From assembly GCA_003216235.1 (NCBI GenBank), contig QCJE01000003.1, positions 5,542 through 69,541 of the forward strand: a DNA stretch of 64,000 nucleotides, written 5' to 3'. Positions 44,486 through 57,638 of this stretch are shown here, in pieces. Origin of the DNA: Pelagibacteraceae bacterium AG-404-P07 (GTDB taxonomy: Bacteria; Pseudomonadota; Alphaproteobacteria; Pelagibacterales; Pelagibacteraceae). Positions within the stretch are counted from its first letter, which is position 1. Each line of letters starts with the position of its first letter. The notes beneath the pieces are model-generated. The model worked only from the letters and a program-made list of their open reading frames with translations. It ran no database searches and had not been told where the DNA came from. The position numbers and the translations under genes are program-made.

Positions 44486-45589
44486 TTAAAGTACATAAGG
44501 TTCTGGTCTAGCTTCTTTACCTAAAACTCTTTCAACAGCCATATTTGAAATATCAATCGATTGATATGCGCCAGTTGTAATTAACTCTGTTAAAGCTCTA
44601 CCAATTCCTGGTGCTTGCATTAGACCTCTACCTGTAAAACCTGTAGCTAAATATACATTTTCAAACTTAGGATGCTTTCCAACTACCGCATTATTATCAA
44701 GTCTATTACAATCATAATAACCGGCCCACCCTCCAGTTAACTTTAGTTCTTCCATTGCAGGTATTCTTTGAGCCAATGCGGGCCATACAAGTTCTTCAAA
44801 ATCATCCCATGCTGGCTCCAAATCATCTGCATCAAAAACAGACTTAGGGGATCCTGCTAAATATTCTTTTCCCTCTGGTCGCCAATATACCCCTGTTGTT
44901 AAATCTCCAGTTAAAGGCATTTCAGGAATATGTTTTGGGCACTTAACTCTAAATACAGTGTGCTTTTGTGGTTCAACTGGAATATCTTCCAATAGTTCTT
45001 TTGTCCAACATCCTGCAGCAGAAATAATTGTTTTAGCTTTTATTTCTGACAAAGATTTTATTTCCCCTTTTACAAATTCCGCACCAAGTTCCATTGCTTT
45101 ACTTTTTAACGCACTATGGAACATAAATGGATCAATCCATCCTTCACTTTGATTATCAGTAAATGTAGCAGTTTCTATTCCATCACTATTTATATATGGA
45201 AAAAATTTAGTTAGTTCCGACCCCTTAATATTTTTTGTACCCGCTTCACAAGCTTTATGGTTCTCTAAAGCTTTATATTGTTCCTCAGCATGTTCAGGTC
45301 CAAACATTAATAGATATCCATTTGTTACCATACTAGCTGTTGGTTTAGGATTTTTTTCTGTTTTTAGTAATTCAGGTATTTGAAAAATAAATTCTCTCGC
45401 AAATTTTCCTAATAAAATATTTTCTGTTTGAAAAAATTGTCTTCTAAATCCTCCAAGTGATAAAGGGAAAGAAGCTGTTTTATATGTTGGATCTCTCTCA
45501 ATTACTTTTACTTTTCTGCCCTCTTTAGAAAGAAAATAAGCAGTTGCTGTACCAATAATTCCGCCACCTACTATTACAACATCATCCAT
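44486..45589 (-). CDS. FAD-dependent oxidoreductase, DAO/sarcosine-oxidase superfamily, FOXRED1-like
   Basis: VVIVGGGIIG dinucleotide-binding motif, SLGGFRRQF, EGWIDP, WAGYYD and GFTGRGLMQAPGIGRA. Confidence 0.82.
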   Translation of the reverse strand: MDDVVIVGGGIIGTATAYFLSKEGRKVKVIERDPTYKTASFPLSLGGFRRQFFQTENILLGKFAREFIFQIPELLKTEKNPKPTASMVTNGYLLMFGPEHAEEQYKALENHKACEAGTKNIKGSELTKFFPYINSDGIETATFTDNQSEGWIDPFMFHSALKSKAMELGAEFVKGEIKSLSEIKAKTIISAAGCWTKELLEDIPVEPQKHTVFRVKCPKHIPEMPLTGDLTTGVYWRPEGKEYLAGSPKSVFDADDLEPAWDDFEELVWPALAQRIPAMEELKLTGGWAGYYDCNRLDNNAVVGKHPKFENVYLATGFTGRGLMQAPGIGRALTELITTGAYQSIDISNMAVERVLGKEARPEPYVL

Positions 45590-45590
45590 T

Positions 45591-46058
45591 TCAATTTAAA
45601 ATATATAAGTTTAAGTTTAGAAATAGTGCATAGCAACTCCAAAGTAAATAGGGAATCATTAGATATGAACTTACATAATTGACACGTTTGAATCTTAAAA
45701 TAAGAATAATTATCAAAATAATTAGAATCATTAATACAATTAATGCTAATAAGATTTGGTGAAGACCAAAAAAAACAATACTCCAAGTTGTATTGAAAAC
45801 TATGTGAATAAAATAAATATAAATTGTATTCATTTCTCTATTTTTACTATGCCAATAAAACCAAATAGCTAATGTCATCATTAGATATAATGTTGTCCAA
45901 ACTGGAGCAAAAATCCAATCTGGTGGATTATAATTTGACTTTACGAGCTGTGAATACCAAGGTTCTTTAAAACTTATTGTCGCCATTCCCCCAATAAATG
46001 ATGCAGAATATGTAATTATGAAAAATAGAACAAATGATATAAATTTATTTTTAAGCAT
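45591..46058 (-). CDS. tspO: TspO/MBR tryptophan-rich sensory protein
   Basis: WY..L.K....PPDWIFAPVWTTLY, N..WS.VFFG and PYLLW motifs. Confidence 0.93.
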   Translation of the reverse strand: MLKNKFISFVLFFIITYSASFIGGMATISFKEPWYSQLVKSNYNPPDWIFAPVWTTLYLMMTLAIWFYWHSKNREMNTIYIYFIHIVFNTTWSIVFFGLHQILLALIVLMILIILIIILILRFKRVNYVSSYLMIPYLLWSCYALFLNLNLYILN

Positions 46059-46082: not shown

Positions 46083-46844
46083 ATGAATAAAAAAACAATT
46101 TGGATAACTGGCGGAAGTACAGGAATAGGCAAAGCGTTAGCTATAAAGTTTGCTAACGAAGGTTGGAATGTAGCGATTTCTGCAAGACGTGAAAATCTAC
46201 TTAAAGAAATTTCTGATAATAATGAAAATATTCATGGATTTCCCTTAGATGTAACAGATAAGTCAAAATGTCGAGAAGTTTTTAAGCAAATTAAAAATAA
46301 GTTTCAAGATATTGATATTTGTTTTTTTTCTACTGGGACTTGGAATCCGAAGAAAGAAAAAGATATAGACATTGAACAAATAGAGGACGTATTTAAAATA
46401 AATTTTTTCGGCACATTAAATAGTATCAAAGCTGTAGAAGAATATTTTAAAAATAGAAAAGAAGGTATTGTAGCTATTGTTTCATCTATTGCTGGATATA
46501 GAGGATTACCCAATTCAACTGGTTATGGACCTTCTAAATCTGCTCTAAATAATTTAGCAGAAAGTTTATACTTCGATTTTAAAAGATCAAATGTACGTGT
46601 TTGCTTGGTATCTCCTGGATTTATAAAAACACCAATGACTGATAAAAATGATTTTAAAATGCCATTTTTAAAAACAACAGAATATGCAGCTGAAAAAATT
46701 TACGATGGATTAATTAATAAGAATGTATTTGAAATTCATTTTCCAAAATCTTTAACTCTTATACTTAAAATTTTAAGCTTCTTACCAAGCAAAATATATT
46801 TTGGTTTGGTGGGTAAAATGACAAAATATCAAAAAAAAAATTAA
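46083..46844 (+). CDS. Short-chain dehydrogenase/reductase associated with the cfa/DUF1365 cluster
   Basis: Motifs TGGSTGIG, SSIAGYRGLP, YGPSK and PGFIKTPMTDKNDFKMPF. Confidence 0.88.
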   Translation: MNKKTIWITGGSTGIGKALAIKFANEGWNVAISARRENLLKEISDNNENIHGFPLDVTDKSKCREVFKQIKNKFQDIDICFFSTGTWNPKKEKDIDIEQIEDVFKINFFGTLNSIKAVEEYFKNRKEGIVAIVSSIAGYRGLPNSTGYGPSKSALNNLAESLYFDFKRSNVRVCLVSPGFIKTPMTDKNDFKMPFLKTTEYAAEKIYDGLINKNVFEIHFPKSLTLILKILSFLPSKIYFGLVGKMTKYQKKN

Positions 46845-47389
46845 TCTTTAACAAATACCACTGTAAGTTCTGCAACTCTTATGCCAAACTTTGTCATGGT
46901 TGCTCTATTTATGGCAACACGATCATCCTGCTTAAATATCCAGTCATCAAAAGTAATTTTCATTTCTTTCCCTTTGACAGGTACTAAAAGAACATATTCG
47001 AATTTAAATGCTGGCCCATATGAATAACCTTTTGCTTTTCCCACAACGTCTCCGGCTGTTCCCTCATAATTGTTGTCATCAATTTTTGTAATTTGCCATT
47101 GTCTATTTTGAATTTCACCATCATCCCAATTAAATTTTTCATCTAAAATTAATTGGTTTCCATCCCATTTACCATTTAGATCTGCTGAAAACTGTCTCGT
47201 AACTTTACCAGATCTATTTTGAAGAACTCCCCAAGCTTTAACATTGCCTGACAAATATTCTTCTATGATTAATCTGGGTTCCTTACCTTTAAAATCTTCT
47301 GGGTTCATAGCACTTTTATTTGAACAGTTTGTAATTAAGAATAAAGAAATTATCAATAAAATTGATTTTAAGTTAATTATTTTTCTCAC
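46841..47389 (-). CDS. DUF3833-family lipoprotein
   Basis: Lipobox-like ITNC; AWG..Q.RSG.V.R.F, LDE.F, FDDW and KFGIRVAE motifs; AGGAG RBS. Confidence 0.85.
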   Translation of the reverse strand: MRKIINLKSILLIISLFLITNCSNKSAMNPEDFKGKEPRLIIEEYLSGNVKAWGVLQNRSGKVTRQFSADLNGKWDGNQLILDEKFNWDDGEIQNRQWQITKIDDNNYEGTAGDVVGKAKGYSYGPAFKFEYVLLVPVKGKEMKITFDDWIFKQDDRVAINRATMTKFGIRVAELTVVFVKD

Positions 47390-47403
47390 ATTTCTCCTTT
47401 TAG

Positions 47404-48582
47404 TTATTTATTTTGTAATGAAAATTGAATTAAGTCGATATTTTTTGATTTAAATCCAGCCTCACAATAAGAAAGATAAAATTCCCACATTTTTTTAAAT
47501 GTCGAATCAAAACCTTGGGTCTTAATTAAATCCCATTTTTTATTAAATTCATTTCTCCATAATGCCAATGTATAAGAATAATGATTAGCGTAAGAGTCAT
47601 ATGACTTTATAGTCAAACCATTTTCTGACACATGCTTATTTAAAGCATTTTTACTTGGAAGAAATCCACCAGGAAAAATGTATTTTTGAATAAAATCTTG
47701 CTTATTTTTATATCTATCAAATAAGCTATCATCAATTGTAATTGCTTGAATAGCAGCTGTGCCAGTATCAGATAAATTTTCTTTAATCTTTTTAAAATAA
47801 CTCTCTAAATAATTTTGTCCTACGGCTTCTATCATTTCAATTGAAGCTATTGAATTATATTTATCTTTTAAATCTCTATAATCTTTAATTTGAATATTAA
47901 CTTTTTCATTTAAACCACATTTATGAATCCTTTCTTTAGCATATTCATATTGTTTTTTTGAAATTGTTATACAATCTAATTTTACATCATATTTCTTGCC
48001 TAAGTATTCAGCAAAACCTCCCCAGCCACATCCTATCTCTAAAACTTTATCTCCATTTTTTGGTTTAATTAGATTAATTAATTTTTGATATTTATTATTT
48101 TGAGCATCTGATAAATCTTGATTTTTCTCCTCAAAGATAGCGCTTGAATATGTAAGAGTTTTATCAAGCCAAAGTGAGAAAAATTCATTCCCTAAATCAT
48201 AATGTTTAGTAATATTTTCTTTACTTCTGCTTTTAGTATTATTAATAAAAATATTCTTTAAAAAATTTATTACTGATAAATCCAATAGTCCCGAAAATTT
48301 ATAGATTACTTTTATATTTCGTGCTGTGATTTCAATTAAGTTTGATAGGTTGTCTGTTTCAAATTCTTCTTTCATATAAGACTCGGCAAAACCAATACTT
48401 CCACCTTTAATCAAATTAAAAGTGAAATTTGGTTTTTTTATTCTTATATTAGCTTTCAAAGAATCATCAGGATTACCAAATTTAATTATGTCCCCATTAA
48501 AGCTTGTGATTTCCAAATAACCAGAATCAATATCTTGCAAAATCCTAAATACAATCTTGTCTGCAAAGTTATATAAATTCAT
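47404..48582 (-). CDS. Cfa-family SAM-dependent fatty-acyl methyltransferase (UfaM-like)
   Basis: Motifs HYDLGNEFF.LWLD..LTYSSA, LEIGCGWGG, SIEMIEAVG, FIQKYIFPGG and WEFYLSYCEAGF. Confidence 0.88.
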   Translation of the reverse strand: MNLYNFADKIVFRILQDIDSGYLEITSFNGDIIKFGNPDDSLKANIRIKKPNFTFNLIKGGSIGFAESYMKEEFETDNLSNLIEITARNIKVIYKFSGLLDLSVINFLKNIFINNTKSRSKENITKHYDLGNEFFSLWLDKTLTYSSAIFEEKNQDLSDAQNNKYQKLINLIKPKNGDKVLEIGCGWGGFAEYLGKKYDVKLDCITISKKQYEYAKERIHKCGLNEKVNIQIKDYRDLKDKYNSIASIEMIEAVGQNYLESYFKKIKENLSDTGTAAIQAITIDDSLFDRYKNKQDFIQKYIFPGGFLPSKNALNKHVSENGLTIKSYDSYANHYSYTLALWRNEFNKKWDLIKTQGFDSTFKKMWEFYLSYCEAGFKSKNIDLIQFSLQNK

Positions 48583-49340
48583 TAGTTTTCAAACGTTATA
48601 TTATTTTTTATTTTTAACTTTTTTTTAATAAATTTTATTCCTTTAGCCCATAATTTAAACGCTTCAAAATGTATCGCTGAAATAATTTTAAAGGTCATGA
48701 GAGGATGTTTTAAGTATGATTTTATCAGCTGTGAGCTTGTAAGGTCTGTTCTCGTACCATCTTGCGAAGCATATAATATTTTTTCATTAAATTGATATTG
48801 ATCGATTATGACTGATATTTTTTCTGAAGGTTTTAAAATTCTAAAAAAGTAATTACAGTTCATTTCTATAAATGGTGAAACATGAAATTTTTTTTCACAA
48901 TTATGTTGTAAAAGATTGTCATTTTCTACTTTAAAAATATAAGTATGTTGCTCTCCAAATGTATTTTTAACCTCATACAATATCGAAATTAATTTATCTT
49001 CATTGTTATAAACATAAAAAACACTCAGGGGATTAAACACATAACCTAAAATTCTTGGGTAACACAAAAGTTTTATCTTAATATTTTTATTATTTATCTT
49101 ATTTTCATTTAAATTTTTTTTAACCCATGCAACTAATGAAGTTCCATTTCTATCACCATGATCTTTGTCAAAGAAGCTAATTAAGTTAAATTTATTATAT
49201 GAAAAGAAACTTATATCTTTATCTAAAATATTTAATTCTGATAAATCAATTAAAAGTGAAAATACTTTATATTTAAAAAAATGTAATTTTGGTTTAAATC
49301 TTTTATGAATTACTGTTCCATTATAAATAGCACTAGTCAT
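48582..49340 (-). CDS. DUF1365-family protein (UfaO-like)
   Basis: Motifs HKRFKP..H.F.Y, PRILGYVFNPLS, EVKNTFGEQH, KKFHVSPF and IHFEA.KLW.KG. Confidence 0.88.
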   Translation of the reverse strand: MTSAIYNGTVIHKRFKPKLHFFKYKVFSLLIDLSELNILDKDISFFSYNKFNLISFFDKDHGDRNGTSLVAWVKKNLNENKINNKNIKIKLLCYPRILGYVFNPLSVFYVYNNEDKLISILYEVKNTFGEQHTYIFKVENDNLLQHNCEKKFHVSPFIEMNCNYFFRILKPSEKISVIIDQYQFNEKILYASQDGTRTDLTSSQLIKSYLKHPLMTFKIISAIHFEAFKLWAKGIKFIKKKLKIKNNITFEN

Positions 49341-50571
49341 TAAAGTTTTTTAGCATTTCAATAGATGATTTTAATCCATCTTCATGAAAACCGTAACCAA
49401 AATAACTACCACAAAAAAGAATATTTCTTTTATTTTGTAAATTTTTAAGCTTACTTTGATATGTAAGTGCTGACTGATCAAAATATGGATGAGTAAATTT
49501 CACTTTTTTTAAAACCTTTGATCCATCTATTTCAAAATAAGGATTCAATGTTAAAAAAATATTTTCCTCACATTTTAAATTTTGTAATAAGTTTAACCAG
49601 TATGTAATTGAATTTTTTTCAATTTCATTTTTTTTAATTGAAGAATTCCATGAAGACCATGCTTTTTTATTTTTTGGCATAACCTTTTCATCTGTGTGGA
49701 TATAAGCAATATTCTCTTTATAACTAAAATTAGATAAAATTTTCTTTTCATCTTCTGAAGGATCTTCAATCATTGATAGTGCTTCATCAGCATGGGTAGC
49801 TAAAATAACTTTGTCATAATTAAAAAATTCACTTTCACCACCGTAATATAAATCAATTCCATTGTTATTAGATTTAATTTTGGTAACTTTATAATTTTTA
49901 AAATGTTCACCACTTATCTTAGAAAGAATATTTTCGACATAAGTTCTACTTCGATTTGAAACTGTATACCATTGAGGTCTATTCTTTAATTTAAACAAAC
50001 CATGATTTTGAAAAAATTTCAAAAAAAATTTTAATGGCATCTGGTTTGCTTCATAAGGTGGCATAGACCAAATAGCAGAAACCATAGGGATCAAGTGATA
50101 ATCTATAAATTCTTTTGAGACCTTTTCTTTCTTTAAATAATCACCAAGTGTTATTTCTTCATCTAACTCATTAAATTTATCAAACTTTTTATAAAATTTA
50201 ATTATATCAAAAAACATTCTTAAAAATTTAAAATTTATCAGATTAGATCTATTAGAAAAAATTCCATCTAATCCTCTACCGCAATATTCAAAAAATGAGT
50301 CATCAACTGAAACCGAAAATGACATGTCACTTTTTTCAATTTCAATTTTATTTTCATTAAAAAATCTAATTAGATTTGGATATGTTTGAAAATTAAATAC
50401 AATGAAACCGATATCTACTGACACTTTTTTAGTTCCAAATGTTAAATCTATTGTATGAGAATGTCCCCCGAAATGATCTTCTTTTTCAAATAAGTCTACA
50501 TGATGATTTTTTGATAAGTAGTAAGCAGCACTTAAGCCTGAAATTCCTGAGCCAACAACAGCAATTTTCAT
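49333..50571 (-). CDS. NAD/FAD-binding amine-oxidase-fold protein (UfaD-like desaturase)
   Basis: Motifs KIAVVGSGISGL, GGHSHT, VDIGFIVFN..TYPN, FF.NHGL, WSSWN and GYGFHEDG. Confidence 0.85.
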   Translation of the reverse strand: MKIAVVGSGISGLSAAYYLSKNHHVDLFEKEDHFGGHSHTIDLTFGTKKVSVDIGFIVFNFQTYPNLIRFFNENKIEIEKSDMSFSVSVDDSFFEYCGRGLDGIFSNRSNLINFKFLRMFFDIIKFYKKFDKFNELDEEITLGDYLKKEKVSKEFIDYHLIPMVSAIWSMPPYEANQMPLKFFLKFFQNHGLFKLKNRPQWYTVSNRSRTYVENILSKISGEHFKNYKVTKIKSNNNGIDLYYGGESEFFNYDKVILATHADEALSMIEDPSEDEKKILSNFSYKENIAYIHTDEKVMPKNKKAWSSWNSSIKKNEIEKNSITYWLNLLQNLKCEENIFLTLNPYFEIDGSKVLKKVKFTHPYFDQSALTYQSKLKNLQNKRNILFCGSYFGYGFHEDGLKSSIEMLKNFND

Positions 50572-50577
50572 TAAACT

Positions 50578-53448
50578 TTATGCTGCATCTTCTTTGAATT
50601 CATCCATACTTGGACATGTACAGAAGATATTCTTATCACCATACACATTGTCTACCCTTGCTACAGGAGGCCAAAACTTATTTGCTCGTAAAAATTTAGC
50701 TGGATAAGCAGCCTCTTCTCGAGTGTATTTGTGCGTCCATTCATCTGATGCTAATTCGGTATCAGTATGAGGTGCATTCTTTATTGGATTATCAACTTTA
50801 TCAAACTTACCAGATTTTATTTGATCAATTTCTTGTTTTATCTTTATTAAAGTGTCACAAAATCTATCCAGTTCAGATAAGCTTTCACTTTCTGTAGGTT
50901 CAATCATCATAGTACCAGCTACTGGCCATGACATCGTCGGTGCATGAAAGCCAAAATCAATTAATCTTTTAGCGATATCTTCCTCTGTAATACCTGTTTC
51001 TGATTTTATTGTTCTGATATCAATAATACACTCATGAGCAACGTTGCCTTTAGAACCTTTGTATAAAATTGGAAAATGATCTTTAAGTCTATTTGCAATA
51101 TAATTAGCGTTTAAGATTGCAACTTGAGTGGCAAGTTTTAATCCCTCAGAACCCATCATTTTAATATACATCCAAGAAATTGATAAAATACTTGAACTAC
51201 CCCAAGGAGCTGCTGAAACAGCACCAATTCCTGACGAAGGGCCACAGTCTTTAACAACCGGATGATTAGGTAGATAAACTTGTAAATGTCTTTTACATGC
51301 AATAGGTCCCATTCCAGGTCCTCCACCACCATGCGGAATACAGAATGTTTTGTGTAAGTTTATATGACAAACATCTGGACCAAAATTTCCAGGTTTTGCA
51401 ATTCCAACTAAAGCATTTAAATTTGCTCCATCCATATAAACTTGACCTCCATGTTTATGAATTAATTCACAGATATCTGATATTTTTTCTTCAAAAACTC
51501 CATGAGTTGATGGATAAGTTACCATCAATGCTCCAAGATTTTCAGAATGAGTTTCTGCTTTTTTCTTTAAATCCTCAAAATCAACGTTTCCTTCTTTATC
51601 ACAATTAACCACAACAACTTTCATTCCAACCATCTGAGCACTTGCTGGATTGGTTCCATGTGCTGAGCTTGGTATTAGACATATATTTCTATTTTTATCA
51701 CCTCTATCTAAATGATATTTTCTAATTACCATTAATCCTGCATACTCACCTTGAGCACCTGCATTTGGCTGAAGTGAAACTCCTGAAAAACCAGTAATTG
51801 ATCTTAGCCAATTTTTAAGGTCTGTGAACATTGTTCTGTATCCTTCCATCTGTTCAATAGGCACAAACGGATGAGGCTCTGCTAGTTCTCTCCATGAAAT
51901 AGGTATCATTTCTGCGGTAGCATTTAATTTCATGGTACATGAGCCTAGGGCAATCATAGTTCTGTTAAGAGCTATGTCCTTGTCTTCTAACTTTTTAAGA
52001 TATCTAAGCATTTCTGTTTCTGAATGATAAGAATTAAAAACAGGATGCTCTAAATATTTTGAAGTTCTTAATAAATTTTTTGGTAAATTGGGTAAACTTA
52101 CTGTAGGATCTTCTTTCTTAATTGATTCAGCTGCATTAAAAATTTTTAATAGTTGATTTACTCTATAAACATTTTTCTTTTCATCAAAAGAAACAGCAAG
52201 CATTTCTGAATTTACTTTTCTTATATTAACTTTTTGAGCCAAAGCATTTTTAAAGATTTGATCAGTTTTTTCTTTAGTAACAATTGTTACAGTATCAAAA
52301 AAATAATCTGAATATATTTCATACCCAGATTGTTTTATCTTATCAGCAAAGTTTTTTGCTAATTGAGAAACTCTTTCAGAAATACTTTTAATTCCATCAG
52401 GTCCATGATAAATTGCATATGCTGCTGAAACTATTGCTAATAAAGCTTGCGCAGTGCAAATATTACTAGTCGCCTTATCTCTTCTAATGTGTTGTTCTCT
52501 AGTTTGTAAAGATAATCTGTAAGCTTTATTTCCATGTCTATCAACTGATACACCAACAATTCTTCCTGGCATTGATCTTTTATACTCATCTTTTGTTGCA
52601 AAAAATGCTGCATGGGGTCCTCCATAACCCATTGGGATGCCAAATCTTTGAGAACTGCCAACTGCAATATCGGCTCCTAGCTCTCTTGGTGTTTTTAGCT
52701 TTGCGAGTGCTAGCAGATCACATGCTAAAATTGCTTTACCATTTTTTTTATGAATTTTACTTATTGCCTCACTAGGATTTTTAATATCACCTAAAGTTCC
52801 AGGGTACTGTAAAATTCCACAAACAATATCTTCTTTTAACTGCTCTAAAACTTTTTCCTCATTCCCAACCAGAACTTTTAGACCAATTGGCTCCGCTCTA
52901 GTTTGTATTACATCAATAGTTTGTGGATGACAATTTTCTGAGACAAAAACTAAATTACTATCACCTTTATTAAGTCTGTGACTCAGGCCCATAGCCTCTG
53001 CAGCTGCTGTACCTTCGTCTAGTAAAGATGCATTTGCAATATCCATTCCCGTAAAATCAACAATCATTTGTTGAAAGTTTAACAGCATTTCCAATCTTCC
53101 TTGCGCTACCTCTGGCTGATAAGGTGTGTAGGAAGTATACCAACCAGGATTTTCTAAAATATTTCTTAAGATTACATGTGGTGTATAGGTTCCGTAATAA
53201 CCCATACCAATAAAATTTGAGTAAACTTGATTTTGTTTTGAAATTACTTTTAATTTTCTTAATGCTTCATATTCTGAATTCGATTCACCAATATTTAATT
53301 CGCCTCTAAACTGTATTTTTTCTGGAACAGTATTATCTATCAAGTCGTCCAGTGATTTATAATTTAATTTTTTTAACATCTTTGATTGTTCTTCTTCAGA
53401 AGGACCAATATGTCTTTTTAAAAAATCTTTTTGGGAATTATGTAACAT
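50578..53448 (-). CDS. gcvP: Glycine dehydrogenase (decarboxylating), P protein
   Basis: Motifs RHIGP, YTPYQPEVAQGRLE, REQHIRRDKATSNICTAQ, LGSCTMKLN and NLHKTFCIPHGGGGPG. Confidence 0.98.
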   Translation of the reverse strand: MLHNSQKDFLKRHIGPSEEEQSKMLKKLNYKSLDDLIDNTVPEKIQFRGELNIGESNSEYEALRKLKVISKQNQVYSNFIGMGYYGTYTPHVILRNILENPGWYTSYTPYQPEVAQGRLEMLLNFQQMIVDFTGMDIANASLLDEGTAAAEAMGLSHRLNKGDSNLVFVSENCHPQTIDVIQTRAEPIGLKVLVGNEEKVLEQLKEDIVCGILQYPGTLGDIKNPSEAISKIHKKNGKAILACDLLALAKLKTPRELGADIAVGSSQRFGIPMGYGGPHAAFFATKDEYKRSMPGRIVGVSVDRHGNKAYRLSLQTREQHIRRDKATSNICTAQALLAIVSAAYAIYHGPDGIKSISERVSQLAKNFADKIKQSGYEIYSDYFFDTVTIVTKEKTDQIFKNALAQKVNIRKVNSEMLAVSFDEKKNVYRVNQLLKIFNAAESIKKEDPTVSLPNLPKNLLRTSKYLEHPVFNSYHSETEMLRYLKKLEDKDIALNRTMIALGSCTMKLNATAEMIPISWRELAEPHPFVPIEQMEGYRTMFTDLKNWLRSITGFSGVSLQPNAGAQGEYAGLMVIRKYHLDRGDKNRNICLIPSSAHGTNPASAQMVGMKVVVVNCDKEGNVDFEDLKKKAETHSENLGALMVTYPSTHGVFEEKISDICELIHKHGGQVYMDGANLNALVGIAKPGNFGPDVCHINLHKTFCIPHGGGGPGMGPIACKRHLQVYLPNHPVVKDCGPSSGIGAVSAAPWGSSSILSISWMYIKMMGSEGLKLATQVAILNANYIANRLKDHFPILYKGSKGNVAHECIIDIRTIKSETGITEEDIAKRLIDFGFHAPTMSWPVAGTMMIEPTESESLSELDRFCDTLIKIKQEIDQIKSGKFDKVDNPIKNAPHTDTELASDEWTHKYTREEAAYPAKFLRANKFWPPVARVDNVYGDKNIFCTCPSMDEFKEDAA

Positions 53449-53828
53449 TATGATGAGCTCTCCTTTGCAAATTTATCATATTCATCTTTATTCATTAAAG
53501 AGTCCATTTCTGATTTATCTTTAATCTTTAACTTAAAGAACCATGCGGTATTTTCAGGATCTTGGTTAATTTTTGATGGATCATCTACGATATCCTGATT
53601 AGTATCAACTACCTCACCGCTAACTGGTGTATACACATCACTTGCGGCTTTTGTAGACTCAACAACTCCTGCTGTTCCATCTTTTTCTACATTGGAACCT
53701 TTTTCTGGAAGCTCTGTAAAAACTATATCTCCTAACATTTCTGTTGCATGTTTTGTAATTCCAATAGTAGCTACATCACCTTCTAACTTAATCCACTCAT
53801 GTTCTTTAGAATATTTTACTTCACTCAT
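53448..53828 (-). CDS. gcvH: Glycine cleavage system H protein
   Basis: Motifs HEWI, LGDIVF and VESTKAASD (lipoyl-Lys). Confidence 0.97.
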
Positions 53829-54931
53829 TTGTTTGCTCCTTTCACATAACTTTTTTTATAAAATGGTAACCCACAGATATTTGCTGGGTATTTTTTTCCT
53901 CTTACTTCTAAAAAAACTTTTGTATCTTTCTTTGAGAATTCATTTTCAACATAACCCATTGCTACTGGTCCATTTACACTTGGACCAAATGTTCCACTTG
54001 TTATTTCGCCTATATATGAGTCTGATTGATTAAATATCTTGGTTTTTTCTCTCGCAATTACTCTACCCTCTGGTTTTATACCAACTCTAATTTTACTAAC
54101 GCCATCATTAAGTTGTTTATTAATTATATTTGATCCAATAAAATTACCTTTGGAAACTCTCTCTTTCGAAATTGCCCATTTTAAATTTGCCTCTACTGGC
54201 GTTTTGTTCTTATCTAGTTCATGGCCATATAAACATAAACCAGCTTCTAATCTTAGAGTATCTCTTGCGCCAAGACCGATCAACTTTGCTCCTTTTTCAA
54301 TTAATCTTTTTGTAAACTTTTCTACTAGATCATTGGGTAAAGAAATTTCAAAGCCATCCTCTCCTGTATAACCAGATCGCGTAATATAAATTTTTTGTTG
54401 CTCAAATAAGAACCAATTCCCGGTCATAAAGGATAGTTCTTCTACACCATTAATAATGTTATTTAAAATTTGTGCTGATTTTGGTCCTTGAATGGCAATT
54501 AAAGATCTGTTTTCATCTAAGACCATTTTATGTTTATTATTTAGTAACTTACTTAAAATTTTAAAATCATTCTCTTTACATGCGGCATTCAGAATTATTA
54601 AAAAACCTTGCTCAATTTTAGTTACAATTAAATCATCATATATGCCTGCTTCATCATTCATTAAAAAACTATATTTTGAATGATTTAATTTTAAATCTTT
54701 TAAGTTTAACGGAAAAATTTTCTCTAAATCTTCAATTAGATTTTCATCTCCATAAATAAATAATTGCCCCATGTGAGAAACGTCAAAGATACCTGAATGA
54801 TTTCTTGTGAATTTATGCTCCTCAACTATTCCATCTGAATATTGAATGGGCATTTGATATCCTGCAAATTCAACAAACTTCGCCTTATTATCTTGATGTA
54901 ATTTATATAAAGATGTTTTTTTTATTTCCAT
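53825..54931 (-). CDS. gcvT: Glycine cleavage aminomethyltransferase T
   Basis: Motifs [27 protein letters not shown] and [18 protein letters not shown]. Confidence 0.97.
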
Positions 54932-54945
54932 ATTAACTCTTTTTA

Positions 54946-55093
54946 CCCATCTGTATATTTGCCTGAGAGTTTTGCTCCTTCGGCGAGAATTTAATCTCTT
55001 TCCAGAGTTAATACGTTACGGTCCTTTTTGCCTGAGAGATTCCTGGGTGGTTGCTCCTTCGGCGCTACGGTATTAAGTAGTCTCTCCCGTATA
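54946..55093 (-). ncRNA. Tandem glycine riboswitch upstream of gcvT
   Basis: The minus strand has two aptamers with the conserved cores: acgGGAGAGA...CGCCGAAGGAGCAA...AATCTCTCAGGCAAAAAGGACCGT, then CTCTGGAAAGAG...CGCCGAAGGAGCAAAACTCTCAGGCAA...ACAGATGGG. It is a GC-rich island directly 5' of gcvT. Confidence 0.95.
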
Positions 55094-55121
55094 GACATAA
55101 TCTAATAAGTAGAGACATATG

Positions 55122-56000
55122 TCAATGAGAAATAGTTTTTTCACTTTTTTTTAAAAGCGTATAAAACTGTATTAAAACAGCTAAAAGAATTATAGCTCCT
55201 CCAATTAAACTTAACGTTGAGGGTCTTTCGCTTGCAAATAGAAAAGCCCACAAAGGTCCAAGAACAGATTCGGATAACATTATTACTCCAACCATTGCTG
55301 AAGGCGTTGTTCTTGCGCCTATAGTAATAAATATAAAACCAAAACCTATTTGAAAAAAACCAGCCAGAAAACCTAAGAAAATATCATAATATGAAATCAT
55401 AATTTTTGTTGAAAGAATATATCCAATTAAGCAGCAACATATTCCTGCAACAAATTGTGCTGGAACCATATCAATTGATGGATATTTTCTAACAACAATA
55501 ATCAATACCGCAAAAGTTATTGGCATTGAGAATGCAGCTAAATTTCCAGTCAGCTCTCCTGGTGATAAAGAATTTCCAACCATAATTAAAACACCAATGA
55601 TCGCCAAAATAATAGAAAATAAAGTAATTGAGGAAATTTTTTCTTTTAAAAAAAAATAACCAAAAATAGCTAAAAATAAAATTTGTAATGAAATGATAAA
55701 ATTAGTGTTAGCTACAGTTGTAGTGTACATTGCAACTACATATCCGCAAAAACCTAAGGATAAAATCACTCCGGCAAAAAATCCAGGAAGTCCTGATAAG
55801 TAAAATGAACTAAATAATCTTTTTTTGTAAGTTATTAATAAAAAGAGTAAAATAGTAATAGAAAAAAAAACTGATCGCCAAAATAAAATTTGCCATAAAT
55901 TGGCTCCCTCAAAAGATTTTACAATTAAACCTCCAAAACTTAAACTTACAGCACCAAAAAAAACTAATAAAGGACCTGGTAAATTTTTTATTAAGTTCAT
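55122..56000 (-). CDS. DMT/EamA-family transporter
   Basis: About 10 TMs; WQILFWRS, TTVANT and LSESVLGPLW motifs; its start overlaps the pxpC stop. Confidence 0.87.
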   Translation of the reverse strand: MNLIKNLPGPLLVFFGAVSLSFGGLIVKSFEGANLWQILFWRSVFFSITILLFLLITYKKRLFSSFYLSGLPGFFAGVILSLGFCGYVVAMYTTTVANTNFIISLQILFLAIFGYFFLKEKISSITLFSIILAIIGVLIMVGNSLSPGELTGNLAAFSMPITFAVLIIVVRKYPSIDMVPAQFVAGICCCLIGYILSTKIMISYYDIFLGFLAGFFQIGFGFIFITIGARTTPSAMVGVIMLSESVLGPLWAFLFASERPSTLSLIGGAIILLAVLIQFYTLLKKSEKTISH

Positions 56001-56944: not shown

Positions 56945-57611
56945 TGAAATTTTGATGTTGATCTTTTGATATTTCTTTAAATGTAACTATATCGCCTGGG
57001 TTAATTAAATTTGGATCTTTTTCATTAAAACTATCAAAAATTTTTAAAGGAGAGTTCCCAATTACATTCCACCCCCCAGGACTTTCAAATGTATAGATAT
57101 TTGCAAATTGTTCAGTTAATCCTACAGAGCCTTTGGGCACTTTAACTCTTGGTGTATCCAATCGATTAACTCTCATATTGATATCAAGATCACCAAGAAA
57201 AGGCATGCCAGCTATAAAACCTGTCATATAACAAAAAAATTCTTTTTTGAAAATATTTTCATAGATTTTAACTCTATTTATTTTCAACTTTTCTTCTAAT
57301 CTTGATATATCAAGTGCAAAACTTTCATGAGTACATACAGGAACTTCTATTTTTTTACTTTTCAATTCATCATGGCTATCAATATTAAGATTTTCGACAA
57401 TTTTTTTTATTACTTTGAAATTAGTCATTTTTAAATCAAATGAAATAATCAACTTATTGTAAGATGGAGTTAAATTATTAATACCTTCTATATTTTTTTT
57501 TTGAATACTTTTGAAATATTTGATTACTTCAGTATTTGTAGATTGATTTACCTCATTACCAAAATCACAATATAAAGCCGCATCACCAAGATTTGATATA
57601 TTTTTTATCAT
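56937..57611 (-). CDS. pxpB: 5-oxoprolinase subunit B (KipI/AHS1 family)
   Basis: Motifs GDAAL, PSYN, GFIAGMPFL, R..TPR..VP.GSVG and SPGGWNVIG. Confidence 0.82.
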   Translation of the reverse strand: MIKNISNLGDAALYCDFGNEVNQSTNTEVIKYFKSIQKKNIEGINNLTPSYNKLIISFDLKMTNFKVIKKIVENLNIDSHDELKSKKIEVPVCTHESFALDISRLEEKLKINRVKIYENIFKKEFFCYMTGFIAGMPFLGDLDINMRVNRLDTPRVKVPKGSVGLTEQFANIYTFESPGGWNVIGNSPLKIFDSFNEKDPNLINPGDIVTFKEISKDQHQNFNE

Positions 57612-57638
57612 GCCATGTTATACTTAACTATTATAACT
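57612..57638. promoter_or_regulatory. 27-bp divergent control region between pxpB and pxpA
   Basis: Plus strand has TG-T-TATACT (extended -10, 57616-57624). Minus strand has TATAAT (57630-57635). An inverted repeat GTTATA-N9-TATAAC spans 57617-57637. Confidence 0.45.

Follow-up and report, generated by a model that had tools for sequence, protein, structure and literature searches.

Genes for furan fatty acid (FuFA) synthesis form the operon RPA2571 (ufaD)–RPA2570 (ufaO)–RPA2569 (ufaM) in Rhodopseudomonas palustris CGA009 (Lemke et al. 2020, PMC7380195). UfaD is an NAD/FAD-binding protein resembling phytoene desaturases, and UfaO is a DUF1365 protein (PMC7380195). In Rhodobacter sphaeroides, ufaD and ufaO are the first two genes of an operon of the singlet-oxygen regulon, which lies beside rpoE-chrR and consists of RSP1091 (ufaD), RSP1090 (ufaO, DUF1365), RSP1089 (a 402-aa methylase), RSP1088 (186 aa), and RSP1087 (245 aa); UfaM of this bacterium is RSP2144, encoded at another locus (PMC7380195). 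In the gammaproteobacterium Halomonas sp. YLGW01, the methylase of the ufa cluster makes 11-methyloctadec-12-enoate, and a second paralogue is a true Cfa making cy17:0 and cy19:0 (PMC12089945). Here we analyzed a cassette of these families in SAR11, located in a 64,000-nt stretch (the window) of contig QCJE01000003.1 of Pelagibacteraceae bacterium AG-404-P07, whose genome is 79% complete. The cassette encodes an FAD protein, a DUF1365 protein, a CMAS methyltransferase, and a DUF3833 protein, and it directly follows the glycine cleavage genes gcvT, gcvH, and gcvP (gcvTHP) and their glycine riboswitch.

With a probability of about two in three, we consider that this is a SAR11 FuFA cassette without a regulator, expressed as the read-through tail of the operon upstream of it, and that its attachment to gcvTHP reflects packing, not coupling to glycine. 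This reading draws on our observations of gene content, gene order, the placement of the methylase, the absence of sigmaE-ChrR, and the comparative pattern among related genomes.

Comparison of the cassette with described FuFA systems

The genes of the locus are as follows (cut-offs are those of the family models).

53825..54931, minus strand: gcvT, glycine cleavage aminomethyltransferase, 368 aa (NF010093, 463.8 bits, cut-off 459; PF01571, PF08669)
53448..53828, minus strand: gcvH, lipoyl carrier protein, 126 aa (NF002270, 164 bits, cut-off 117; PF01597, 1.4e-43)
50578..53448, minus strand: gcvP, glycine dehydrogenase, 956 aa (TIGR00461, 1448.7 bits, cut-off 859)
49333..50571, minus strand: UfaD-like protein, candidate FAD-dependent fatty-acyl desaturase, 412 aa (NAD_binding_8, 2.2e-16; Amino_oxidase, 9.1e-16)
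48582..49340, minus strand: UfaO-like DUF1365 protein, candidate O2-dependent furan-ring former, 252 aa (PF07103, residues 5-241, 258.5 bits, cut-off 25)
47404..48582, minus strand: cassette CMAS methyltransferase using S-adenosylmethionine (SAM), candidate UfaM (cis-vaccenate 11-methyltransferase), 392 aa (PF02353, 283 bits)
46841..47389, minus strand: DUF3833 protein, 182 aa, with an N-terminal signal/lipoprotein-like leader ending in Cys (PF12915, 206.8 bits)
46083..46844, plus strand: short-chain dehydrogenase/reductase (SDR; adh_short), 253 aa, converging on the cassette end (PF00106, 152 bits)
45591..46058, minus strand: TspO/MBR tryptophan-rich sensory protein, 155 aa (PF03073, 133 bits)

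In a map of the open reading frames (ORFs) between 44 and 58 kb, gcvT and gcvH overlap by 4 nt, gcvH and gcvP by 1 nt, the FAD and DUF1365 genes by 8 nt, and the DUF1365 and CMAS genes by 1 nt. The gap between gcvP and the FAD gene is 6 nt, the gcvP stop being followed directly by AGTTTA and the ATG of the FAD gene; 14 nt separate the CMAS and DUF3833 genes, and the SDR gene overlaps the DUF3833 stop by 4 nt. The map reproduced exactly the gene order, strands, and spacings described in an earlier note on this DNA, and all the family assignments made there were strong. The note's account of the neighborhood was correct for the genes it listed and left out TspO, which is kept beside the SDR gene across Pelagibacter loci as part of the conserved neighborhood.

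Judged by its families and their order, FAD–DUF1365–CMAS–DUF3833 is the canonical alphaproteobacterial FuFA/singlet-oxygen cassette, accompanied by a convergent SDR gene and a neighboring TspO gene; the families and order are those of RSP1091–1087 and RPA2571–2569, and the earlier note had likened the cassette to the R. sphaeroides set. The likeness to R. palustris is one of gene order, with the FAD protein, DUF1365, and CMAS genes in the same succession inside the cassette. Unlike in R. palustris, sigmaE-ChrR is absent from SAR11, and the SAR11 cassette abuts gcvP without promoter space. In R. sphaeroides five genes correspond, and the lengths of RSP1089, RSP1090, RSP1088, and RSP1087 (402, 250, 186, and 245 aa) are close to those in the window (392, 252, 182, and 253 aa). 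The DUF3833 gene occupies the position of RSP1088, and the SDR protein is similar in size to RSP1087. However, the R. sphaeroides SDR is described inside the RSP1091–1087 operon, whereas that of the window converges on the cassette end, and the sigmaE-ChrR regulation of R. sphaeroides has no counterpart in SAR11. The cassette methylase of R. sphaeroides is also dispensable, UfaM being unlinked. Thus, the R. sphaeroides gene set that the earlier note had named was right in placing UfaD and UfaO in the cassette and wrong in taking the methylase at this position, RSP1089, for UfaM.

To place the locus among Alphaproteobacteria, we used 161 genomes sampled evenly across ~145 families and examined 20 ChrR-linked cassette loci from 20 genomes. 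The FAD gene lay directly upstream of the DUF1365 gene in all 20 (37–43% identity to the FAD protein of the window), and the order FAD–DUF1365–CMAS was found in 17. DUF3833 followed the methylase in 12/20, a convergent SDR gene was present in most, and TspO was directly upstream in 1/20. Overall, the proteins of the window were 35–46% identical to those of the ChrR-linked cassettes. Within the Pelagibacteraceae, DUF1365 was detected in 162 of the 173 genomes searched. The cassette type itself is already known; this analysis adds relatives that lack gcvTHP, a tree of the methylase, statistics on the regulator, and an interpretation of the riboswitch platform.

The cassette in relatives with and without gcvTHP

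A scan for related genomes matched only Pelagibacteraceae and Candidatus Pelagibacter, at 79–94% identity, which places the window in SAR11. In a first set, gcvP was followed by the FAD gene in 18/18 same-genus relatives in which gcvP was contiguous to downstream sequence, and the gap between the two genes was 3, 6, or 12 nt in 78 of 80 Pelagibacteraceae loci. The order DMT, riboswitch, gcvTHP, cassette, SDR, TspO was also found, with the riboswitch present, in three further genera at 50–60% protein identity, which brings the genera with the gcvP–cassette junction to four. The synteny survey thus bore out the tight junction of the earlier note as a conserved one.

Ten relatives (loci L022-L026, L233, and L246-L249) have neither riboswitch nor gcvTHP at the locus, and all of them keep an intact cassette at the same place. 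There the cassette joins the DMT gene of an unrelated pxpB–pxpC–DMT operon; in the five genomes whose junctions were read, cassette and DMT gene overlap by 1 or 4 nt or are 9 nt apart. A whole-genome search for the GDC-P family returned nothing in the five gcv-less relatives tested, one of which is 96% complete. Since the five gcv-less genomes first examined were not monophyletic on a tree of cassette DNA (node supports 0.955–0.995), gcvTHP has been lost at least twice independently. In two further genomes, gcvP is frameshifted or internally deleted next to an intact cassette: in the closed genome G196 (L245 5702-8556) it appears frameshifted, with two overlapping matches in different frames, and in G164 (L043 6486-8915) it lacks residues ~94-272. 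These defects may represent decaying genes or assembly errors.

Within the genus, the riboswitch–gcvTHP block (window 50578–55102) is polymorphic, being present in some genomes and absent from others. Of 146 species sampled, about 10 carry the cassette and no GcvP, and GcvP was found in 0/27 genomes of a second SAR11 family. This distribution bears on which SAR11 lineages can oxidize glycine. These results suggest that the gcvP junction, although old and stable, is probably a product of genome packing and not a device that couples lipids to glycine.

Other upstream partners of the cassette

A photolyase gene overlaps the FAD gene in three more genera of the Pelagibacteraceae, g5-g7. In two genera of the second SAR11 family, a distant copy of the cassette (30–42% identity) overlaps the end of soxA–soxG–DUF983 (L034 949-8001; also L033, L035, and L036), and one further genome has a divergent TauD gene upstream of the cassette. 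Photolyase was also directly upstream of the cassette in 3/20 ChrR-linked loci. Among 20 small ChrR-less Alphaproteobacteria, it was upstream in 4, assorted unrelated genes were upstream in nine others examined, and gcv or sox genes were upstream in 0/20. These gene arrangements make it most likely that the cassette is the tail of the respective upstream operon, with no promoter of its own.

In the closed genome G219 (L037 6494-7908), two overlapping ORFs, FAD_binding_7 (241 aa) and DNA_photolyase (271 aa), make up the photolyase that precedes the cassette, which suggests a frameshift.

Absence of the sigmaE-ChrR regulator

The earlier note had seen no rpoE or chrR in the window. Our family search extended this to the whole 79%-complete genome, in which sigma-70 region 2 matched only a 628-aa and a 297-aa protein and nothing reached the ChrR cut-off. 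Five closed SAR11 genomes likewise contained only RpoD and RpoH, and no ChrR. Among the 161 sampled alphaproteobacterial genomes, DUF1365 was present in 83 and ChrR in 60. ChrR occurred in 56 of the 83 DUF1365-positive genomes and was encoded within ~6 kb of DUF1365 in 34 of them. Since the 27 DUF1365-positive genomes without ChrR are mostly 1.2–2.5 Mb in size, loss of the regulator with retention of the cassette is a general feature of small genomes.

Phylogeny of the cassette methylase

The methylase of the window scored 265 bits on the E. coli-type Cfa model (cut-off 400) and 263 bits on the Brucella-type Cfa model (cut-off 600). Two full-length CMAS genes, 33% identical, were present in near-complete relatives: one in the cassette, and a paralogue at another place in the genome that scored 504 bits on the Brucella-type model. 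Only the cassette copy was seen in the genome of the window. The pair resembles, by description, the two CMAS paralogues of Halomonas sp. YLGW01, one in the ufa cluster and one Cfa. In Pelagibacter (L027 5579-8300, G013), the Cfa-like paralogue has a DHDPS-family gene on one side and, on the other, two ORFs of 401 and 97 aa without a Pfam match.

We built a FastTree phylogeny with SH-like supports from 90 CMAS domains: 34 cassette-linked, 40 non-cassette copies of those same genomes, 9 from SAR11, 6 from DUF1365-less genomes, and E. coli Cfa. The class-level CMAS search included one unpublished genome (G258), on which no claim rests. Every cassette-linked methylase, including those of the window and of other SAR11 lineages, fell into one clade (n = 44, support 1.0), which also takes in two copies from a genus in which the cassette-type gene has changed place. 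Outside it were 46 sequences (the second SAR11 paralogue, 38 non-cassette paralogues, the 6 copies from DUF1365-less genomes, and E. coli Cfa), whose grouping together had a support of only 0.65. The earlier note had named placement of the methylase among true cyclopropane synthases as evidence against its proposal; in the tree, the methylase is separate from E. coli Cfa.

Two other kinds of methylase gene were considered. A photolyase-adjacent UfaM like RSP2143–2144 was sought and rejected, a photolyase being found within 3.5 kb of 0/40 non-cassette CMAS loci. R. palustris also has FufM (RPA0924), a dimethyl-FuFA methylase; the sole other full-length CMAS gene in near-complete SAR11 relatives is Cfa-like, and no search was aimed at FufM.

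The glycine riboswitch and transcription signals

Tripp and colleagues reportedly described a glycine riboswitch–gcvT leader of SAR11 in 2009. The SAR11 leader of Meyer et al. (2009, PMC2704228) occupies the same intergenic position as the element in the window, between a membrane protein gene and gcvT. In Red Sea mdRNA-seq data, in situ SAR11 transcripts start at the P1 stem of the riboswitch and run into gcvT, and the authors state that they found it linked to no other genes (PMC5069720). These leader studies do not discuss genes beyond gcvP (PMC2704228, PMC5069720), where the cassette follows in the window. The leader features are as follows.

54947..55102, minus strand: tandem (two-aptamer) glycine riboswitch (RF00504, alignment to RF03166, and fold)
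55097..55125, minus strand: candidate sigma-70-like promoter, TTGACA-17 nt-GATTAT (consensus scan, 10/12 matches)

RF00504 matched positions 55009–55099 with 65.1 bits (gathering score 32). A full-length alignment to the tandem model RF03166 gave 66 bits, below its gathering score of 110; the second aptamer was seen in this alignment and in the fold (leader fold z = −3.2). The glycine riboswitch that the earlier note had recognized upstream of gcvT is thus present and is in fact a tandem element. The candidate promoter lies just upstream of the riboswitch, overlaps the end of the upstream DMT gene, and agrees with the published SAR11 start at the first base of the P1 stem (PMC5069720).

The riboswitch ends at a distance of 15 nt from the start codon of gcvT, an AUG that the predicted fold includes in the P1 stem of the second aptamer. 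Since the spacing leaves no room for a terminator, control is probably translational. The riboswitch would then most likely act on translation of gcvT and not on transcription of genes 4.4 kb downstream, and such control would most likely reach the cassette only indirectly.

From the riboswitch to the DUF3833 gene, all genes are on the same strand with short gaps and no terminator. A consensus scan found no terminator-like site at any junction, in agreement with the earlier note. The three sites that it did find in 10 kb are all within gcvP, and shuffled sequences gave an expectation of 2.8. One of them was considered as a candidate terminator, a hairpin at 50713–50698 with a 5-bp stem that is kept, by eye, in ~13/21 genomes; it was rejected, being inside coding sequence and one of a number of hits equal to the shuffle expectation. 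Spacing gave little further information: 34 of the 44 same-strand gene pairs in the window (77%) are 15 nt or less apart, with a median gap of 0 nt, and the 6-nt gap between gcvP and the FAD gene therefore carries little weight. Co-transcription of the cassette with gcvTHP is somewhat more likely than not.

Weighing the alternative explanations

The earlier note had proposed that the cassette is wired to glycine availability. If the cassette were deliberately coupled to the riboswitch, the supply of methylene-tetrahydrofolate (methylene-THF) and SAM from glycine would set lipid methylation and photo-oxidative protection. The terminator-free junction, with 3–12 nt between gcvP and the FAD gene in nearly all loci and in four genera, speaks for such coupling. 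The cassette of the second SAR11 family follows soxA–soxG–DUF983, another source of methylene-THF, and this shared product could hint at a real one-carbon (C1) link; since a 1.3-Mb genome has only ~10 GCV_T-domain genes, two such neighborhoods are somewhat unexpected by chance. However, the coincidence was recognized only after the data had been seen, and tight spacing is the norm of the genome. The riboswitch and gcvTHP have been lost in at least two independent events with the cassette intact and in place, and gcvP is defective in two more genomes that keep it. Partner genes also change: in the three genera g5-g7 the cassette is joined to photolyase, and neither gcv nor sox precedes it in the small ChrR-less Alphaproteobacteria. 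Finally, a terminator would not fit behind the riboswitch, whose probable target is the translation of gcvT. The wiring proposal thus finds little support, and deliberate coupling seems very unlikely. A related view is that the FuFA cassette was recruited more than once behind operons releasing methylene-THF (gcvTHP and soxA–soxG–DUF983), its expression in gcv-bearing cells following the tandem riboswitch through polarity or mRNA stability. This, too, has little probability; if it were true, the glycine and C1 status of the most abundant heterotroph of the ocean would be mirrored in its membrane photo-protection. The specific glycine link is probably incidental.

It is rather unlikely that the cassette has a promoter of its own inside the 3′ portion of the preceding coding sequence, which would make its transcription independent of gcvTHP and glycine and perhaps constitutive. 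Promoters within genes must be common in this genome, since the divergent genes pxpB and pxpA (window 57611-57615) are 3 nt apart and another divergent pair 9 nt apart, so that their promoters must lie inside neighboring coding sequence. The AT-rich sequence gives many −10-like hexamers, and cloning notes for R. sphaeroides mention a potential internal promoter in that operon (PMC7380195). However, promoter-like matches in the region numbered 43 against 58 in shuffled sequence. The last 40 codons of gcvP showed no excess of synonymous conservation (0.639 vs 0.615 overall, rank 34 of 200 windows), and across 21 genomes the last 120-240 nt had neither such an excess nor a conserved hexamer pair, a result that still allows a weak promoter. 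Moreover, the gcvTHP deletions, of which there were at least two, removed every base of gcvP with the cassette kept. Dependence of the cassette on a gcvP-internal promoter is thereby excluded. It is unlikely, in turn, that the cassette makes no FuFA and yields only methyl-branched, cyclopropane/cyclopropene, or other oxidized lipids. The chemistry of DUF1365 has been shown for only two proteins (PMC7380195), and the methylase at the cassette position in R. sphaeroides, RSP1089, has no detectable role in FuFA synthesis. On the other hand, nearly all Pelagibacteraceae have the three families that the pathway needs, and in the window each of them is intact. The methylase does not belong to the Cfa clade and scores less than either curated Cfa model demands, and cyclopropanation already has an enzyme in the separate, Cfa-like paralogue. 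In R. palustris and Halomonas, the methylase inside the cassette makes 11-methyl-18:1 and is the UfaM demonstrated by experiment, the paralogue elsewhere being Cfa or another enzyme.

Several points besides the shared methylene-THF context weigh against the read-through reading of a FuFA cassette. Deletion of RSP1089 leaves the fatty acids of R. sphaeroides unchanged (PMC7380195). Because our tree does not include the proven UfaM proteins (RSP2144, RPA2569, and that of Halomonas), the label "UfaM-type" is based on where the gene lies, together with published results. We found no report of furan or 11-methyl fatty acids in SAR11 in the searchable literature, and nothing relevant on SAR11 furan fatty acids or on the HTCC1062 locus tags SAR11_0668-0672. 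Recombination is heavy in SAR11, and the cassette tree may therefore miscount the independent losses of gcvTHP.

Proposed pathway and its significance

By analogy with R. palustris and Halomonas, the pathway in SAR11 may run as follows. The cassette methylase, acting as UfaM, would use SAM to convert phospholipid-bound cis-vaccenate to 11-methyl-12-trans-18:1. The FAD protein (UfaD) would desaturate this product to the 10,12-diene, and the DUF1365 protein (UfaO) would insert oxygen from O2 and close the furan ring; in the described pathway the phospholipid products are 11Me-12t-18:1, 11Me-10t,12t-18:2, and 9M5-FuFA. SAR11 has lost sigmaE-ChrR along with nearly all its sigma factors, and the cassette, without promoter space of its own, would be read through from riboswitch–gcvTHP in most Pelagibacteraceae, from pxpB–pxpC–DMT where gcvTHP has been deleted, from photolyase in g5-g7, and from soxA–soxG–DUF983 in another family.

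The habitat of SAR11 is sunlit, oxygenated surface water, and these bacteria carry proteorhodopsin. A FuFA pathway that is near-universal among them would be a plausible, so far undocumented part of their defense against singlet oxygen, and it could also be a marine source of furan lipids. The pattern would also illustrate how a streamlined genome may look after the loss of a stress regulator, with genes of the regulon surviving as tails of unrelated operons.

Genes beside the cassette

In one unrelated alphaproteobacterium, TspO is directly upstream of the FAD gene (L153 2177-2593). The recurrent pairing of TspO with the cassette is possibly related to porphyrins or singlet oxygen. In the window, TspO is followed after a 1-nt gap by a gene for a DAO-family FAD oxidoreductase of 367 aa (44486-45589, minus strand), which is kept in relatives and matches the glycine oxidase ThiO weakly (79 bits vs a cut-off of 251).

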